From the NCBI RefSeq assembly GCF_036365525.1, contig NC_090371.1, positions 267,874,837-267,938,836 on the forward strand: a DNA stretch of 64,000 nucleotides. Reading direction: 5' to 3'. Of the stretch, positions 18,435 to 64,000 are shown piece by piece (positions within the stretch are counted from its first letter, which is position 1; each line of letters begins with the position of its first letter). This DNA comes from Heterodontus francisci. Lineage: Eukaryota. Below the pieces are notes generated by a model. That model was not told where the DNA came from, did no database searches, and saw only the letters and a program-made list of their open reading frames with translations. The position numbers and the translations under genes are program-made.

Positions 18435-18486
18435 CATCTTCATTTTCGTCAAACACCGGTGTTTTATGGGAGTGGTTGGCGCCCAT
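18435..18486 (-). CDS. STK32C: STK32 (YANK) family Ser/Thr kinase, first coding exon; probably STK32C by synteny with LRRC27, though the sequence resembles STK32A/B
   Basis: Translates as MGANHSHKTPVFDENED plus G|gtaag (52 nt, phase 1). This matches the recalled N-termini of STK32A (MGANTSRKPPVFDENED) and STK32B (MGGNHSHKPPVFDENEE). No downstream exon was found in 1-18434, implying a long intron 1. Family call is strong; paralogue call is moderate. Confidence 0.85.
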
Positions 18487-24160: not shown

Positions 24161-24417
24161 AAGTGATTCCTGACAACGCAGCTGGCCACTGACGTCATCA
24201 GCCTGCGCCAAGGTGTGCACATGCGCAGATGGTCTCCTGCTCTCTGCAATTGCGCTGCGTTCCGACTTTCCAGGACTGGTTAGCGCATACGCCAATGACG
24301 TCACTGCGTGACGTGTGCATCTTCGGGCAACGCGCCTGGTCGGCCTCTGTGCATGCACTTTACGCGTACAGCAATGCAACGTCAACAGGTATTCACCCAT
24401 GCGTCAAGCTCCACTGC

Positions 24418-25130
24418 CCCCCCCCCCCCCCCCCGCCACTTCCCCCTCGTTGCTCTCTCCGGCCGCTCCGCTCCCCCCACCCCTCGCTACTGTCTCCGGC
24501 CGCTCCGCTCCCCACCCCCCTCGCTGCTCTCTCCGGCCGCTCCGCTCCGCTCCCCCCCTCGCTGCTCTCTCCGGCCGCTCCGCTCCGCTCCCCCCCTCGC
24601 TGCTCTCTCCAGCCGCTCCCCCCCTCGCTGCTCTCTCCAGCCGCTCCCCCCCTCGCTGCTCTCTCCGGCCGCTCCGCTTCCCCCCCACCTCCCCCCCCCG
24701 CCCCCCCTCGCTGCTCTCTCTGGTCATTCCACTCCTCCCCCTCACTGCTGTCTCCGGCCGCTCCGCTCCCCCCCCCCTCGCTGCTTTCTCCGGCCGCTCC
24801 GCTCCCCCGCCCCCCCTTGCTGCTCTCTCCGGCCACTCCACTCTTTCCGGTCGCTCCGCACCCCCCGCACCCCTGGCCCGCTCGCTTGCTTGCCCCCATC
24901 CCGCTCCGCCTCCCCCCACCCCATCCCTGTCCCGCTCCGCTCCCTCCCCACCCCCCTGTCCCCCCCCCCCCATCCCCCACCCCCACCTCCACCTCCCATT
25001 CCGTCCCCACCCCCATCGTCCCCGGCCCGCTCCGCTCCTCCCTGTCCCCAGCCCACTCCACTCTCCCGTCCCCGTCCCTGGCCCGCTCCATCCCATCCCC
25101 GTCCCACTCGCTCACTCTCTCCCTCCCGCC
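24418..25130. repeat. C-rich GC minisatellite (unit ~25-38 bp, ccccctcgctgctctctccggccgctccgct) decaying into low-complexity C tracts
   Basis: More than 10 imperfect tandem units visible at 24440-24860; strong C/G strand asymmetry. Confidence 0.9.
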
Positions 25131-25949
25131 ATTGTGTGCTGCCATGTGTTTAGGTTAGACTGCCTTCGTGTGATTATTTGAGCAGCGCCATCTTTAGTCC
25201 TGGCAGCTGCCTGAAGTTGCAGACTGTGATGTTTTAGTGGCACATGCTGCTTTTGCGCATGTCACTGCAGCACCACCTAGTGGTAGCGTTGTTAGCAAAC
25301 GCAGCCGCAGTTAAAAGTGTGATGCTTGCCTGTCGCACATGAAGTGCACCCAAAGTGCCCAGACTAGCAGTCACATTTAGCGAAATTGTGAATGTGCACC
25401 CTTTTTTGGGGAAGCCTGATGGTGCTTGTCGCATACCCCATTTCATATGCCACAGGACAAACACATTGTGAAATAAATGGCAGACGGACACAGCTTGATT
25501 ACCACTGCCACCTTTTCCACCATGAAGAACAGGAGGGGACAAAGAACAGTCTCACACAGGACTAAAGTTGGTCCTGTAAACAGGAAAAGCACCATGTTCC
25601 CTGCAATTGTGAAGGGATTAAGCAATGCTATAAAAGCTTTTTCCATCAATAATTTCTGACCAAATTAACCTTAGCTGGACTGGTTCTCATTCTTGAACTT
25701 TCAAGTTGGCAAGCTGGATCTGCAGCATACAGTCAGAGAATCCACATTGTCATGTGTCAAGCAATAGTTAGCACAGGATTGTTTAGATTATTCCCAGTCC
25801 TGGCCATGATGAGTGACTGACTTAGCAACCATAAAGCTCTTGCTATAGATAGCTTGTATGAAAACTGGTTACTTGTTAATAATAATATATGATCTCAACA
25901 GTTTTTTTTTGTCTAGTACAATTTTGAGGGTTACATTAAATTAATTTGG

Positions 25950-32534: not shown

Positions 32535-33545
32535 CTTTTTATTGATTCATGGGATGTGACAAGGCCAGAATTTATTGCCCATCCCTAACTGTCCTTGAGA
32601 AGGTGGTGGTGAGCCACCTCCTTGAACCGCTGCAGTCCATCTGGTGTAGGTACACCCGCAGTGATGTTAGGAAGGGAGTTCCAGGGTTTTGACCCAGCGA
32701 CATTGAAGGAACGGTGATATAGTTCCACGTCAGGATGGTGCGTGACTTGGAGGGAAACTTGCAGATGTTGGCGTTCCCATGTGTCTGCTGCCCTGCTAGA
32801 TGGTAGAGATTGTGGGTTTGGAAGATGCTGGCGAAGAAGCTTTGGCGAGTTGCTCCAGTGCATATTGTAGATAGTACACATTGTTGCCACTGTGAGCTGG
32901 TGGTGGAGGAAATGAATGTTTAAGGTGGTGCATTGGGTGCCAATCAAGCAAGCTGCTTTGTCCTGGATGGTTTGAACTTCTTGAGTGTTGTGGGGGCTGC
33001 ACTCATCCAGGCAAGTGGGGAGTATTCCATCACACTCATTTTGTGCCTTTATATATGGCAATCAGGCTTTGGGGAGTCAGGAGCTGAGTTACTTGCTGCA
33101 GATTTTCTAACCTTTGACCTGTTCTTGTAGCCGCAGTATTTAACTGGCTGATTCAGTTAAGTTTCTGGTCAATGGTGACCACCCCCACCCAGGATGCTGA
33201 TGATGGGGGTTTCAGTGATGGTAATGCTGTTGAATGTCAAGGAGAGATTGTTAGTTCTTACTTGTTGGAGATGATCATTGCCTAGCACTTGTGTGGCATG
33301 AATGTTACTTGCAACTTAACAGCCCAAGACAGAATGCTGTCCATGTCTTGCTGTATGCGGGCATGGACTGCTTCAGTATCTGAGGAGTTGCAAATGTATT
33401 GAACACTATGCAATCATCAGCGAATATCCCCACTTCTGACCTTATGATGGAGGGGAGGTCATTGATGAAACAGCTGAAGATGGCTGAGCCGAGGACACAA
33501 CCCTAAGGAGCTCCTGCCATGATATTCTAGAGCTAAGATGATTGA
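32535..33545 (-). mobile_element. LINE 3' portion (same family as 9480-12060)
   Basis: ORF 32585-33061 (IQDKAACLIG…GLQRFK…HHHLLK) and the shared 3' end. Confidence 0.85.
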
Positions 33546-34041
33546 ATCTTGACCTTTTACTGTTCAATAAATTTGTTTGGCAGTTAAAGCCTAAGTCACA
33601 GTCTAATGCAGTATTGCTGAGATTTTTGATTATTTAACTAGGAGGAATTTTTGGATTAATTTATGTTAAAGTGCTGCTAGTAAGTTAGATTCAGATTCCA
33701 AGGGATAAAATCCATACAAAGCACAAATTTCTGGGAATGAAAGTTAGATCCAGATATTACGCCTGTCCAGATTAATGTACCAGTTCAAAAAATGAAGTTA
33801 ATTAAAATGTTCTTGCAGCATACACACCTAACATGTTGGAAAGGCATCCTTCATTTCAACCCATCAGGGGTCAGGCATGGAAGGGTAAACTGGCAGGGGT
33901 TGTACACCTACTGGACTATGGTATACACCCAATATACACAGCTGAGGTCATGTGCTGGGTCCTCACGGTGTTATTAATTGATTAGTGAGAGCTTTCGTGT
34001 AAATTTAAAACAACATAGAGCTGCTTATTCAAACAGTTACT
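33497..34041 (+). repeat. Direct repeat copy 1 (~545 bp); copy 2 is at 37385-37922
   Basis: Near-identical sequence from acaaccct(a/g)aggagctcc to caaacagttact, with scattered substitutions and one ~9-bp indel. Confidence 0.95.
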
Positions 34042-35518: not shown

Positions 35519-35662
35519 ATGGATTTGTTAAGAAAAATCGTTCTCCTGTCCACGCTCCTTATAATTGCTGATTCTGCCCCACCAACTTGCTACTCGGCGG
35601 TTTTGAGATTAAGTAAAGGAATTATGGAATCTATGGAAAGATTAGAGACTTTCCCGATCACG
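35519..35662 (+). CDS. CYTL1: Cytokine-like protein 1 family, exon 1 of join(35519..35662,35741..35785,35894..36040,36251..36334), 139 aa
   Basis: MDLLRKIVLLSTLLIIADS signal peptide, then APPTCYSAVLRLSKGI (human PPTCYSRMRALSQEI). Ends ACG|gtaaat, phase 0. Confidence 0.93.
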
Positions 35663-35740
35663 GTAAATCATAACCCAATCTGCGGGCTTGATTCCTCATT
35701 GTGCTTGTACAGTAGCTAAATGAATTTGTTTCTTCCACAG

Positions 35741-35785
35741 AAACGCTGTCTTGCTTATCTACCAAAGCTCTACATTAATGTGCAT
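35741..35785 (+). CDS. CYTL1: CYTL1-family exon 2
   Basis: ttccacag|KRCLAYLPKLYINVH|gtaagt, 45 nt; compare human EPCVRYLPRLYLDIH. Confidence 0.93.
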
Positions 35786-35893
35786 GTAAGTACTTGTGGT
35801 TTGAAGAGAAAAAATGTAGTTTGGGTGTAATTATTGTTTGTAGTGATTTATCCTTGATGAAAGTATTGAAGAAGAAATACATTGGCGTTTCAG

Positions 35894-36040
35894 AACTCTT
35901 GTGTGATGATCAAACTCCGCGATCATCTCTATGCTTTGGAAAACCTCATCACTCCCCAGTGCAAGGAGCTGAAAAGAATTGCGTTCCTGAAAGTGCGCAT
36001 CAGGCGCTTGGACAAGATGATCAACCAACTCTGCTACCGG
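35894..36040 (+). CDS. CYTL1: CYTL1-family exon 3
   Basis: tttcag|NSCVMIKLRDHLYALENLITPQCKELKRIAFLKVRIRRLDKMINQLCYR|gtaacg; compare human NYCVLDKLRDF…C…FCRR. Confidence 0.93.
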
Positions 36041-36250
36041 GTAACGTGTACACTGTCGTTGTCTCCTTTGCTTTATTCATGGGTGGTGTTTGCACTTTCG
36101 TACCTCCATATAAGCAAGCCGACACCTGATATACTAATGCGCGTTTTTAGTTCGTTTCTAATAGGGTAGTGCTGGGCGTACCGAGAGTATATTTACTTCA
36201 ATACCACTGTATTCACATCAGTGTCATTAATGACCCTTGTCATTTCACAG

Positions 36251-36334
36251 GAGCTGGTATTCTTCATTGATGATTGCGCGGCACTGGAACACCCACCTCC
36301 TCCACCGGATCCGCAAGAAGAACTCTGGAAATGA
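36251..36334 (+). CDS. CYTL1: CYTL1-family exon 4 (stop)
   Basis: tttcacag|ELVFFIDDCAALEHPPPPPDPQEELWK*; compare human DLVFLLDDCNALEYP. Confidence 0.93.
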   Translation, partial: ELVFFIDDCAALEHPPPPPDPQEELWK

Positions 36335-36620: not shown

Positions 36621-36634
36621 AATAAACAAATAAA
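36621..36634 (+). terminator. Candidate polyadenylation signals of the CYTL1-like gene
   Basis: Two AATAAA hexamers (36621 and 36629), ~290 nt after the stop and followed by a GT/T-rich tract. Confidence 0.6.
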
Positions 36635-37033: not shown

Positions 37034-37385
37034 GGACGGCACAGTGGCGCAGTGGTTAGCACCGCAGCCTCACAGCTCCAGTGACCTGGGTTCAATTCTG
37101 GGTACTGCCTGTGTGGAGTTTGCAAGTTCTCCCTGTGTTTGTGTGGGTTTCCTCCGGGTGCTCCGGTTTCCTCCCACATGCCAAAGACTTGCAGGTTGAT
37201 AGGTAAATTGGCCATTAGCAATTGCCCCTAGTGTAGGTAGGTGGTAGGGAAATATAGGGACAGGTGGGGATGTGGTAGGTATATGGGATTAGTGTAGTAT
37301 TAGTATAAATGGGTGGTTGATGGTCGGCAATGACTTGGTGGGCCGAAGGGCCTGTTTCAGTGCTGTATCTTTAAACTAAACTAAA
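37034..37385 (+). mobile_element. HE1-type V-SINE, full length
   Basis: A box tggcgcagtgg, B box ggttcaattc, V-domain (gtgggtttcctccgggtgctccggtttcctccca) and tail (taaac)n. Confidence 0.9.
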
Positions 37386-37922
37386 CAACCCTGAGGAGCT
37401 CCTGCAATGATAGTCTGGAGCTAAGATGATTGAATCTTGACCTTTTACTGTTCAATAAATTTGTTTGGCAGCTAAAGCCTAAGTCACAGTCTAATGCAGT
37501 ATTGCTGAGATTTTTGATTATTTAACCTAGGAGGAATTTTTGGATTCATTGACGTTAAAGTGCTGCTAGTAAGTTAGATTCAGATTCCAAGGGATAAAAT
37601 CCATACAAAGCACAAATTTCTGGGAATGAAATTTAGATCCAGATATTACGCCTGTCCAAATTAATGTACCAGTTCAAAACAATGAAGTTAATTAAAATGT
37701 TCCTGTAGCATACACACCTAACATGTTGGAAAGGCATCCTTCATTTCAACCCATCAGGGGTCAGGCATGGAAGGGTAAACTGCAGGGGTTGTACACCTAC
37801 TGGACTATGGTATACACCCAATATACACAGCTGATGGTCATGTGCTGGGTGCTATTAATTGACCAGTGAGAGCTTTTGTGTAAATTTAAAACAACATAGA
37901 GCTGCTTATTCAAACAGTTACT
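37385..37922 (+). repeat. Direct repeat copy 2 of 33497-34041
   Basis: Direct visual alignment with copy 1. Confidence 0.95.
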
Positions 37923-40739: not shown

Positions 40740-40835
40740 CACTGGCCATGCGCGCCTATCATAGAAAGAGGTTTGACAACAACACAAACGTTACAAGAAT
40801 CTCCATGGTTACCGGGGCGTTGCTGCAACGTTGAA
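40740..40835 (+). promoter_or_regulatory. Candidate LRRC27 promoter with RFX X-box-like sites
   Basis: CpG-containing segment with ATCTCCATGGTTAC (40799-40812) and the palindrome CGTTGCTGCAACG (40818-40830), ~330 bp upstream of the ATG. Confidence 0.45.
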
Positions 40836-41147: not shown

Positions 41148-41342
41148 ATGGAGATTGATGTGGAGCAGGCTGAGCCCTGTTCCTGCAGAGAACCTGAAGT
41201 TCCACATTTCTGCACCCCGACTTCGGATCAGGGAGAAACTCCAAGTGAAAGACGATGTGATGTCTGGTGCAGTGACAAGTCACTTGATCTCTGTAGGAAG
41301 GACCTAACCTGCCTGAAGTGTGACATGCCGAGATGTATCGAG
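41148..41342 (+). CDS. LRRC27: LRRC27 first coding exon
   Basis: MEIDVEQAEP…KSLDLCRKDLTCL…PRCIE|gtaaat, phase 0, joining in frame to the next exon. LDL..L motif as in human ILDLSESGLCRL. Possible acceptor ttttag at 41116. Confidence 0.75.
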
Positions 41343-52405: not shown

Positions 52406-52536
52406 CATCTGTATCTGGAGGGGAACTTGCTTCAGGAGTTGCCGGATGAACTGTTTGATCATTTGCCAAAGCTAGTGTGGTTGGACTTGAGAAAGAACAG
52501 ACTGCAGAAACTACCTGCTCGAATTGGAAATCACAG
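52406..52536 (+). CDS. LRRC27: LRRC27 coding exon 2 (leucine-rich repeats)
   Basis: cctacag|HLYLEGNLLQELPDELFDHLPKLVWLDLRKNRLQKLPARIGNH-AG|gtatgg, 131 nt; compare human [24 protein letters not shown]. Confidence 0.93.
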
Positions 52537-54370: not shown

Positions 54371-54429
54371 ATGTCTTAGAACACTTTTGTTGGAGACAAA
54401 CCCACTCAGAGAGTTACCAGTTGAACTAG
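54371..54429 (+). CDS. LRRC27: LRRC27 coding exon 3
   Basis: tttttcag|A-CLRTLLLETNPLRELPVEL-G|gtaggg, 59 nt, phases 2/1 consistent; compare human [20 protein letters not shown]. Confidence 0.93.
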
Positions 54430-54613: not shown

Positions 54614-54766
54614 GAAATGTACCATCTCTTAAAGCACTTAATCTGAGGAATTGTCCACTTCAGTTTCCACCTTTGGATATTGTACATTTAGGCACCCAAA
54701 TCATTCTTTCATTTCTTAGGCAGCAGGCCACTAAATTTGTTTCTGGAGCTGAAAATCACGAAACAG
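54614..54766 (+). CDS. LRRC27: LRRC27 coding exon 4
   Basis: ttttcag|GA-NVPSLKALNLRNCPLQFPPLDIVHLGTQIILSFLRQQ…HET-G|gtaaga, 153 nt; compare human TLKALNLRHCPLEFPP. Confidence 0.93.
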
Positions 54767-61304: not shown

Positions 61305-61521
61305 ATCCAAGTCATCCCATTAAAATAGTAAATCGGCCCCTTAAAATAATAAAGATACAAGATTCACTGGAGAATTGCTCTGAGAACCAGGGTGAAAATA
61401 AGTTCCAAAGAGCAATAGAACCTCTAATATCAGTACAGGGACGTACACTTCATTTCAAGCCACTACACAAACCTGTGCTCTGCAGCAACATAAGTAACAT
61501 CAGAAATAATTTTTTACAAAG
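61305..61521 (+). CDS. LRRC27: Probable LRRC27 coding exon 5 (divergent linker)
   Basis: Long polypyrimidine tract plus ctacag acceptor; an open phase-1 frame continuing exon 4 (D-PSHPIKIVNRP…NNFLQ); donor AG|gtatgg. No recognisable homology. Confidence 0.6.
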
Positions 61522-64000
61522 GTATGGAATTGTTTGACTGCTGTAAACATGATTGAAATTCTGAAAGTGAAATAACAAGAAACGGCAGATTGAAGAGCAA
61601 TTTTTATAACTTGTCAAATGTAAAACATTGTTAAACTAATACGCTGAGGTGTAGCAACACTATGGTTTACAATTACGTAACAAATTCACATGTAGTACAA
61701 TCTCACAAGTAGTGTGTAACTTCAACCTTTCTCTATTGTTATGTTGAATAGTTCCCCATTGTTACTCGTTTGTTGTACCTGATATTTTTAGCACAAGATG
61801 ACCTTTCTTTGACCCACCATACGACGACAAATTACACTGGGGAAATATCATGCATTATTTAATCAATTTTACTAATTGGATAGATTTTGTGCCCAGTAAG
61901 TCATAATACGTAAGGTAAAGCAAACTGGTGAAAGCTGGAAAATTGAAACAAAACTAGATAACGCTGGAAAGCCTCAGAAGATCAATTAGCATCTGACCGA
62001 AAAGAAAGGCCACTTTCTGTTCTTCGCAGGAACAAGCCACCAGATCATTTTTGGGGTGAAAGTGAGATCCATCAATATCTTCAGGCTGGGGTTGTAGCCT
62101 GGAAGACTATGGAATTGGTGCCTAGCAGTTTTCAGACTGGCCCTCTTGTAAAGCTGGCCTGTAGCTGGAAAGCTATCTTATGAAGGGAGCCTGCTAGTCC
62201 CGACCATTGGCAACTGATCAGATGCCCAACCTTCTTCCATTCACCCCCTCCCCTCCATTCACCCCCTCCCCTCCATCAGCTGCACCCATATTTGTGTGAT
62301 TGTCTATCCAAGATATGCTAAACAGCAGATACTCCAGCATTAAGGAATAAATGTTACATTTATGTGGGTGGGGAGGGGTTGTGGATAAGGGGAGGGTAAA
62401 ACTGGTCCATCTAGCTTGCACCCTACAGTTATGATGCCTTATGCATCACGTCAAGAGACTTCTTATCCTCTGGATGGCATGCCTTGTGAAGCCTTAAACC
62501 AGATTAAATGCTAAAATCCAAGGCAGCTTTTTTACCAAATGTTGCCTCATGTATTGCTACATATTAAAACTCAGTGTCTGGGTTATTTTTAGTATGGTAG
62601 CAAAATGATTCCGAGTACTTGTCCCTAGAGAAGATTTGCCTGGAAACCTCAAAAACACGAGGATTTTTGCTCAAATTCCTTCTCTGCTGATGATATAATG
62701 TTTGGTTTAAAAGTATAATCCCCTGTTTTGATAGGTATCAGTAGAATGCAGGTTGATTTCTATTTAAAGACTTATAGAAAATAGAAACAACTGCTTGTGG
62801 GGCTTGAAATTGGTCTTGGCAATACTTAAGCAGCCCATTTTACACTTGTCTGACTTTATTTTCCAACGGGCTATCAGTTCACTACCACCTGTTTTGCACT
62901 ATCACCGCAGATCAATTTCACCCCAAAGTCTTCAAAACCTTATCTGATTCACTTTGTTCAACTTGATGCATTGAATATTTTTTTCGTAAAGAAATTAAAT
63001 GTTATATTTACAGTGGTGACAAGCAAGACTTTGAAATAAAGGCAGACACCAAGGGTCAGATTGGCATTTTACATCAGAGGAGAAAAGTCAAGGGAAGAAT
63101 GTTTCCTGCCTTACCTGAATTGGTGGAAAAGCAAAATTATACAGAGCAAATGCAAAGGTAAATGGATTTTAGATGTGGCTTTTCCTCATGTAATCTATCG
63201 AAATAAGGCGAGAAGAATTGGCCCCTTGTGCAGAACCTTAAAATAATATTTTTTGCACGTGTCATGTATATGAATTCTACATTGAGATTCGCTGAGCTTG
63301 GCTTCTACCTTGGGTTCAGTTTCTTCTTTGTGGTTATGTTGAAGTCTCTGACCTATAACTTCATTGGTCCCTGGGGAGTGGGGGGGTGGCAATGGGAAAT
63401 GCCAAGTGAATGAATTTCTCAACGTTCTCTTGCCCGTCCACTGTATTCCAGGAAACCCTGGAGAAATTACATAAACAATGTTCATACTGTTTATGGTTTC
63501 CATGACTCTTACGCAGAAGTAACAGTAGACGATCAGAAGAACCCCTGTGGAAAATCACCATCGAAGTCTACACCCAGAATAAGAGTAGCTAAGATTTTTC
63601 ATTGAGGCCTGGGGCAGATAGAGCTTCCATCTAAAGCATACATGGACCCTTTTTTAAGAAATAATTGTTTCAGGATGTGAGTTATGCTGCTTTGGATGTA
63701 TTTATTATCTTTTCCTAGTTGCTCTGAACTACAGTCATTGCTGTGACAATGGTGTCAGGTAACAAATACCAGAATATTGACACAGTGATGATGAAGGAAC
63801 AGCAATAAATGTCTAAGTTAGGCTACTGTGTGACTTGAAGCAGATGTTAAAAATAGGAGGGTGATCAGTGGGATAGTATTTTTCTCCAGAATTCTCAGTG
63901 TCCCTGCCTCTTTTCTGATCACCAATCCTTGTGAGACGACACTGGTAACCATTCTCCAGCCAGATCCACAGCCGTTGATAACAAGTTTCAATCCAGTGTT

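Follow-up and report, generated by a model that had tools for sequence, protein, structure and literature searches.

In mammals CYTL1 (C17, Pfam family PF15153), according to a review (PMC6697716), works in cartilage and in CD34+ cells, via Sox9 and IGF1, with CCR2 as its likely receptor beside a second, unknown one. For the human 4p16 region the deletion tables of one report (PMC4804413) list MSX1, CYTL1, STK32B, C4orf6, EVC2, EVC, CRMP1 and JAKMIP1, and the order at human 10q26 is given in a passage of another report (PMC4411697) as JAKMIP3, DPYSL4, STK32C and LRRC27. We analyzed a 64,000-nucleotide stretch of DNA from the horn shark Heterodontus francisci (the window, C1:267874837-267938836) that carries a CYTL gene. 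We are confident that the horn shark gene is orthologous to CYTL1, located in the human gene order and likely encoding a secreted helical ligand, with the block history given below. It shares with CYTL1 the family, the six cysteines, the neighbors STK32, EVC2 and MSX, and the tree clade. Unlike the human locus, the shark locus has an LRRC27-like gene between CYTL1 and MSX, and a 545-bp repeat flanks the shark gene.

The sequence-only reading had described an intact gene for a 139-residue protein with six cysteines, divergent from an STK32 gene and upstream of an LRRC27-type gene. This description was borne out by the exons, the splice sites, spliced contigs and an identical NCBI protein. The gene has four coding exons (Table 1) separated by three GT..AG introns of 78, 108 and 210 nt, all in phase 0, and the cysteines of its 139-aa product are at positions 24, 51, 66, 86, 110 and 121. 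Exons 1, 3 and 4 were scanned with PF15153; exons 1 and 3 passed the cut-off of 27 bits with 41.9 and 53.5 bits (E 1.2e-10 and 3.1e-14), and exon 4 stayed below it (E 0.0057). In contigs from three out of four sequencing runs, 95-99% alike to the window, all three introns were skipped at the predicted sites; two of these runs came from one sample and one from another study, with no RNA record or tissue label. The contigs of the fourth run spanned unspliced intron 3 and exon 4 alone. One contig pushed the 5' end to ~35382, and on the 3' side spliced contigs reached 36456, with AATAAA at 36621 and 36629. The gene is thus confirmed as real and is already annotated under the name of CYTL1: the NCBI entry 'cytokine-like protein 1 [Heterodontus francisci]' (139 aa) is identical to the window product, and eight further shark and ray relatives were found in NCBI among 11 candidates. 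The N-terminus is hydrophobic (9-residue Kyte-Doolittle mean up to 3.0), from which secretion via a cleaved signal peptide is predicted.

Table 1. Coordinates of the features found in the window.
Feature	Position	Strand	Remark
CYTL1 coding exon 1	35519..35662	+	predicted signal peptide (~residues 1-19) and helix A
CYTL1 exon 2	35741..35785	+	45 nt (15 aa), phase 0
CYTL1 exon 3	35894..36040	+	147 nt
CYTL1 exon 4 including stop codon	36251..36334	+	below-cut-off Pfam match, spliced contigs
STK32 coding exon 1 (STK32B by position)	18435..18486	-	17 kb upstream of CYTL1, divergent
Direct repeat, left copy, flanking CYTL1	33497..34041	.	545 bp, 94.7% identical to right copy
Direct repeat, right copy	37385..37922	.	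same 545-bp repeat
LRRC27-like coding exon 1	41148..41342	+	second LRRC27
LRRC27-like exon 2	52406..52536	+	leucine-rich repeats; paralogous exon C20:44787143-44787271
LRRC27-like exon 3	54371..54429	+	
LRRC27-like exon 4	54614..54766	+	
LRRC27-like exon 5	61305..61521	+	
LRRC27-like exon 6	63014..63157	+	

We then compared the neighborhood of the window with the two human regions. On C1 the order was JAKMIP (266.95-266.98 Mb, +), DPYSL (267.27 Mb, +), EVC2 (267.36-267.39 Mb, +), STK32 (267.69-267.89 Mb, -), CYTL (267.91 Mb, +), LRRC27-like (267.92-267.96 Mb, +) and MSX (268.08 Mb, -), which is the human 4p16 order with one extra gene, the LRRC27-like gene. The strands of the C1 genes presumably also match those of the human CYTL1 locus. 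Only the first coding exon of STK32 falls inside the window; the gene continues beyond its left edge, with exon 4 at 267.69 Mb, and EVC2 is next in line. All four EVC2 matches in the genome fell in one place on C1, in a stricter first look that could miss weak copies. The window gene thus occupies the position of a CYTL1 orthologue, between STK32B/EVC2/CRMP1/JAKMIP1 and MSX1. An LRRC27-like exon of the window had one paralogue among the 85 candidates scored, at 44.787 Mb on C20, where LRRC27 (44.745-44.787 Mb, -), STK32 (44.813-45.13 Mb, +), DPYSL (45.25 Mb, -) and JAKMIP (45.44 Mb, -) follow each other, as they do at human 10q26, and three LRRC27 exons face STK32 exon 1 at a distance of 26 kb. 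A profile scan of 340 kb of C20 (44.62-44.96 Mb) for CYTL gave a best match of E 0.13. Because EVC2 and MSX are syntenic on C1 and the C20 pair showed no CYTL in the 340 kb scanned, C20 is the STK32C/LRRC27 locus and the window is the 4p16-type CYTL1 locus.

The window had been proposed to be the STK32C (10q26-type) locus, with its CYTL gene a sister of CYTL1 that mammals have lost. An LRRC27-family gene does follow the window CYTL gene, as would be expected from human LRRC27 adjoining STK32C. On the other hand, EVC2, which adjoins the window STK32, and MSX flank the window in the human 4p16 order, the window gene falls inside the CYTL1 clade with the tetrapod proteins in both trees described below, and a separate STK32/LRRC27 pair with DPYSL and JAKMIP, and with no CYTL match better than that weak one, is present on C20. 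A 10q26-type paralogue would show DPYSL4/JAKMIP3 flanks, no EVC2 and a place outside the CYTL1 clade, and the window gene did not fit this pattern. The proposal is already refuted by the C20 pair and the EVC2 synteny, barring swapped chromosome ends in the assembly, and we regard it as extremely improbable. The same reading had offered, as its alternative, an STK32B/CYTL1 locus with reciprocal retention of LRRC27; gene order upheld the position, and the reciprocal retention fell because LRRC27 is present both on C1 (4p16-type) and on C20 (the copy in the human position). It had also taken the residues NHSHK in exon 1 of the kinase as a mark of STK32B. They are no such mark, since exon 1 of the STK32A-like kinase on C12 carries NHSHK as well.

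The kinase names STK32B and STK32C rest on position, with human STK32A as the sole sequence reference. The genome contained three STK32 genes (five pattern matches, two of them by chance), and exon 4 scored 101.7 bits (C12), 97.7 bits (C1) and 92.9 bits (C20) against human STK32A. A fourth STK32 on the unplaced scaffold C1129 was rejected, as both pattern matches there lay in closed frames and were due to chance; two 3-kb stretches of this scaffold, at 2.23 and 3.97 Mb, were 99.9% identical, either because they were duplicated recently or through an artefact of the assembly. When single DPYSL exons were compared with the PDB, DPYSL2 came out on top for C1 and C20. In the C1 exon CRMP1 was ahead of DPYSL3 by 0.5 bit and in the C12 exon DPYSL3 was ahead of DPYSL2 by 0.2 bit; the leanings (CRMP1 for C1, DPYSL4 for C20, DPYSL3 for C12) hold by fractions of a bit or with DPYSL2 excluded and therefore add little. 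An MSX-pattern match on C10 had no homeodomain and was discarded. A third MSX homeobox gene, probably Msx3, was located at C42:16310565, away from the 10q26-type genes on C20.

The extra gene of the window encodes a 441-aa product with the NCBI name LRRC27-like. Four more matching exons were found within 22 kb to the right of the window, and the gene extends to ~C1:267961000. Its nearest chordate Atlas clusters were LRRC27 (0.98), and it shared with the C20 LRRC27 three exons with common boundaries and 56-76% identity. A word-limited search yielded 11 matches among 18 candidates, ten close ones from cartilaginous fish and one a chance dinoflagellate protein. The most plausible reading is that of an LRRC27 duplicate that was retained, seen so far, in this word-limited search, in cartilaginous fish alone. 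As judged from database records, CYTL1 and the LRRC27-like gene lie on one chromosome in Heptranchias, Stegostoma and Hemitrygon, three out of five other species, the other two being not comparable. Near 40805, close to the start of the LRRC27-like gene, we noted an RFX-like palindrome, which would fit a cilia-related promoter.

A family search of the genome identified a second, intact CYTL gene at C12:21398199-21400418. This gene has four phase-0 exons of 144, 45, 141 and 63 nt, encodes 130 aa with six cysteines and is 42% identical to the window CYTL over 103 columns. It is head-to-head with STK32 exon 1, located 10 kb upstream and divergent. We call the C12 kinase STK32A-like, since it is the closest of the three exons to human STK32A. 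The same family search, with 50 candidates scored, gave matches over the cut-off on C1 and C12 alone, and with a second-clade protein as the query the C12 gene was the sole match at E < 0.05; a third CYTL gene was therefore not accepted. The wider idea of the sequence-only reading, a second CYTL that sharks have and mammals lack, is thus supported, although that reading had placed the gene in the window and considered it a cartilaginous-fish gene; it is located beside an STK32A-like kinase on C12, and its distribution, given below, is wider.

To place the two genes we searched 1.84 billion representatives with a family profile and obtained 44 matches, 20 of which were looked up by name. Trees were built from 105 mature-domain columns with LG+G4 on 25 rows, leaving out 12 of 37 (three partial or mis-modelled, nine near-redundant), and with LG+C20 on 37 rows, three further rows being left out. 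Non-homologous ends were masked or trimmed in three rows, one of which is labelled mammal by resemblance. In both unrooted trees, drawn with no outgroup, the family split in two with 99/98 support. One side comprised the window gene with its orthologues in other sharks, the cytl1 proteins of teleosts, and those of lungfish and tetrapods. The other comprised the C12 gene with its orthologues in sharks and skates, the coelacanth protein and zmp:0000001268 of teleosts. Judged by these trees the window gene appears to group with tetrapod CYTL1, contrary to what a sister of CYTL1 would do. Since sharks as well as bony fish are represented in each clade, the duplication is older than the split between them. 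In the AU test a shark-only duplication was rejected (p 0.046, marginal), as was a group of the window gene with the coelacanth and teleost second clade (p 0.044, marginal). With profiles built without tetrapods, clade 1 was preferred by 22 out of 22 named tetrapod proteins, with margins of 0.8-20.3 bits, and one bird-like row was tied between the two profiles.

Several of these results would also fit a hidden paralogy, in which tetrapod CYTL1 goes back in sequence to a gene of the C12 type, through conversion or a move into the 4p16 site, and the window gene is an orthologue by position only. Tetrapods and the shark C12 genes as one group were unrejected by the AU test (p 0.079); inside clade 1 of both trees tetrapods fell outside shark, teleost and lungfish, contrary to the species tree; the LG+C20 tree carried a long-branch warning; and for one bird protein the two profiles gave nearly the same score (106.1 and 105.3). 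Identities were near-equal too: a vole and three birds shared 45-46% of residues with the window gene and 41-44% with the C12 gene. The protein is short, and the clades are not separated by identity alone. Against a hidden paralogy stand the strong support for the split in two models, the preference of the frog Ascaphus for clade 1 by 20 bits and a gene position concordant with the tree. We consider it very improbable. For the orthology of the window gene, gene order outweighs the tree, and both agree on CYTL1. Exon 3 of the window gene holds six residues that are absent from the tetrapod rows and mostly present in the fish rows of both clades, so that in this stretch the protein differs from tetrapod CYTL1.

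The C12 gene grouped with Latimeria XP_006010141.1, Rhincodon XP_020367148.1 and teleost zmp:0000001268, the shark C12 genes being nearer to the coelacanth than to the teleosts with weak support (43/23). Most second-clade entries are labelled plain 'cytokine-like protein 1', others zmp:0000001268 or 'CYTL1 domain-containing protein'. A word-limited search with eight second-clade proteins gave 145 matches among 1380 candidates. The 120 matches listed comprised 118 fish, including many teleosts and six cartilaginous species, and two birds ranked last. Both birds belonged to clade 1 in the trees, and no tetrapod second-clade member was seen among the 120 matches listed of the 145 in this word-limited protein search. 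Both kinds of CYTL were found in seven further fish (Scyliorhinus torazame, Cetorhinus, Mustelus, Garra, Labeo, Scleropages and Mugil); in the protein searches the coelacanth yielded a second-clade protein alone and the lungfish a first-clade protein alone. These matches support a second CYTL common to sharks, rays, teleosts and coelacanth, not confined to cartilaginous fish, and this gene was likely lost in land vertebrates.

We looked at C12 for further genes of the C1 set. Both CYTL genes are head-to-head with STK32, and JAKMIP, DPYSL and MSX occur on both chromosomes, on C12 at 28.8, 28.2 and 47.3 Mb and thus 7-26 Mb off, as paralogous neighborhoods would have it. The STK32/CYTL pair (STK32 at 21.23-21.39 Mb) lies ~7 Mb from DPYSL/JAKMIP (28.2-28.9 Mb) and points away from them. 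Because of this distance a rearrangement on C12 has to be assumed, and distance and orientation of the STK32A-like gene suggest an inversion in the horn shark lineage. The same arrangement would suit a segmental duplication that preceded the shark/bony-fish split, by which the C12 pair would have arisen apart from any genome doubling, the window gene still being CYTL1. No LRRC27 remnant was found within 21.304-21.704 Mb, and a repeat-masked ORF list gave no clear neighbor gene for ~300 kb downstream of the C12 CYTL, with a ~15-kb gap included in both cases, which would also suit such an origin. Against it, paralogues of the C1 genes JAKMIP, DPYSL and MSX are present on C12, as is the kinase exon that resembles human STK32A most. 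As a further counterpoint, human STK32A adjoins DPYSL3. We hold a segmental duplication to be very improbable and prefer genome doubling, so that the second CYTL likely dates from the early vertebrate doubling.

In an ancestral block, STK32 would have stood head-to-head with LRRC27, and CYTL would already have been in between when the genome of jawed vertebrates doubled. Three copies of this block would persist in the shark: STK32B, CYTL1 and LRRC27-like on C1 (4p16-type), STK32A-like and the second CYTL on C12 (5q-type), and STK32C-like and LRRC27 on C20 (10q26-type). Over four shared exons, 151 out of 167 residues were identical between C1 and C12, 143 between C1 and C20 and 138 between C12 and C20, a small margin that is nil for JAKMIP. 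Because the two most similar copies (C1 and C12) are those with CYTL, the gene most likely came into being or into place between the two doublings, the second of which copied it, and C20 may therefore never have had a CYTL gene; it may alternatively have lost one. A 64-species survey regards CYTL as new in jawed vertebrates (PMC10792014), and in a passage that does not name these chromosomes the second of the genome doublings is described as specific to jawed vertebrates (PMC7269912). On balance we lean towards a fuller account, in which a 'CYTL2' (zebrafish zmp:0000001268) was born beside STK32A at the jawed-vertebrate doubling, has persisted in sharks, rays, teleosts and coelacanth for >400 million years and was lost toward land vertebrates; CYTL would have joined the STK32/LRRC27 pair between the doublings, and the complete block of three genes, including a second LRRC27, would survive in sharks alone.

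The six cysteines were invariant in 79 out of 79 aligned rows. A first model of the window protein from nine rows was poor (pLDDT 60), and a model from the 79-row alignment reached a pLDDT of 86.9, with helices at 24-42, 46-52, 67-79, 84-88 and 90-109; strands as long as three residues or longer were absent. Since this confident model is helical and lacks a three-stranded sheet, the protein does not have the chemokine (IL8-like) fold; the survey likewise reports no homology of CYTL to chemokines (PMC10792014). All ten Atlas look-alikes listed were clusters of the interleukin/GM-CSF type with scores of 0.84-0.89, below 0.9. The top rows of a Foldseek search were mostly helical cytokines, not significant (best E 0.16 for IL-11, TM ~0.4), VIA returned generic bundles, with the best Z of 8.4 on an unrelated bundle, and a PDB sequence search with the family profile gave serum albumin alone (E 0.05). 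Short-chain interleukin genes have a four-exon, phase-0 layout. Like the short-chain four-helix cytokines (IL-2, IL-3, IL-5, GM-CSF and IL-13), the window protein has a predicted helical bundle and a signal-like N-terminus, with four phase-0 exons, exon 2 being short; unlike them, it has no PDB sequence match and no significant fold match, and helix C of the CYTL1 model is short.

The signal peptide would be cleaved and the six invariant cysteines would form up to three disulfides. The helical bundle would then bind a receptor on the surface of cells of cartilage or of the marrow type and signal to them, as the model and the mammalian papers suggest. In this reading the protein is likely to be a cytokine-like ligand that is secreted, stabilised by disulfides and folded as a helical bundle. 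A receptor of the cytokine-receptor kind would be more likely than a chemokine receptor; the report of CCR2 as a mammalian receptor counts against this (PMC6697716).

The CYTL1 gene of the window is an ordinary one and was annotated before, and the second clade is known as database labels. A literature search with thin coverage of subscription journals found no paper on the second CYTL. The 64-species survey describes CYTL trees that mainly follow the species tree and very simple complement dynamics (PMC10792014), whereas in seven other fish each side of a deep split is represented, almost always under the label 'cytokine-like protein 1'; the CYTL trees of the survey (Figs S7, S8 and S20) may already show the duplication. 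Because the labels are nearly uniform across the two clades, expression or knockout work on fish 'cytl1' can be confounded, either by redundancy or because the wrong gene is studied. The legend of a shark fin preprint speaks of 'cytl1-positive cells' and leaves unstated which CYTL gene is meant (10.64898/2026.02.08.704681). A ligand pair in fish and apparently one ligand in land vertebrates would give a comparative handle on the disputed receptor of CYTL1 and on its cartilage signalling.

Two features of the window DNA itself were also noted. A G+C-rich, pyrimidine-rich low-complexity tandem array at 24400-25150 gives rise to long spurious open frames. The entire CYTL1 gene is bracketed by copies of the 545-bp direct repeat 3.9 kb apart; the genome has two full copies of this repeat, the remaining matches being fragments of at most 130 bp. 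The pair is a recent local duplication, and recombination between the copies could delete the gene.
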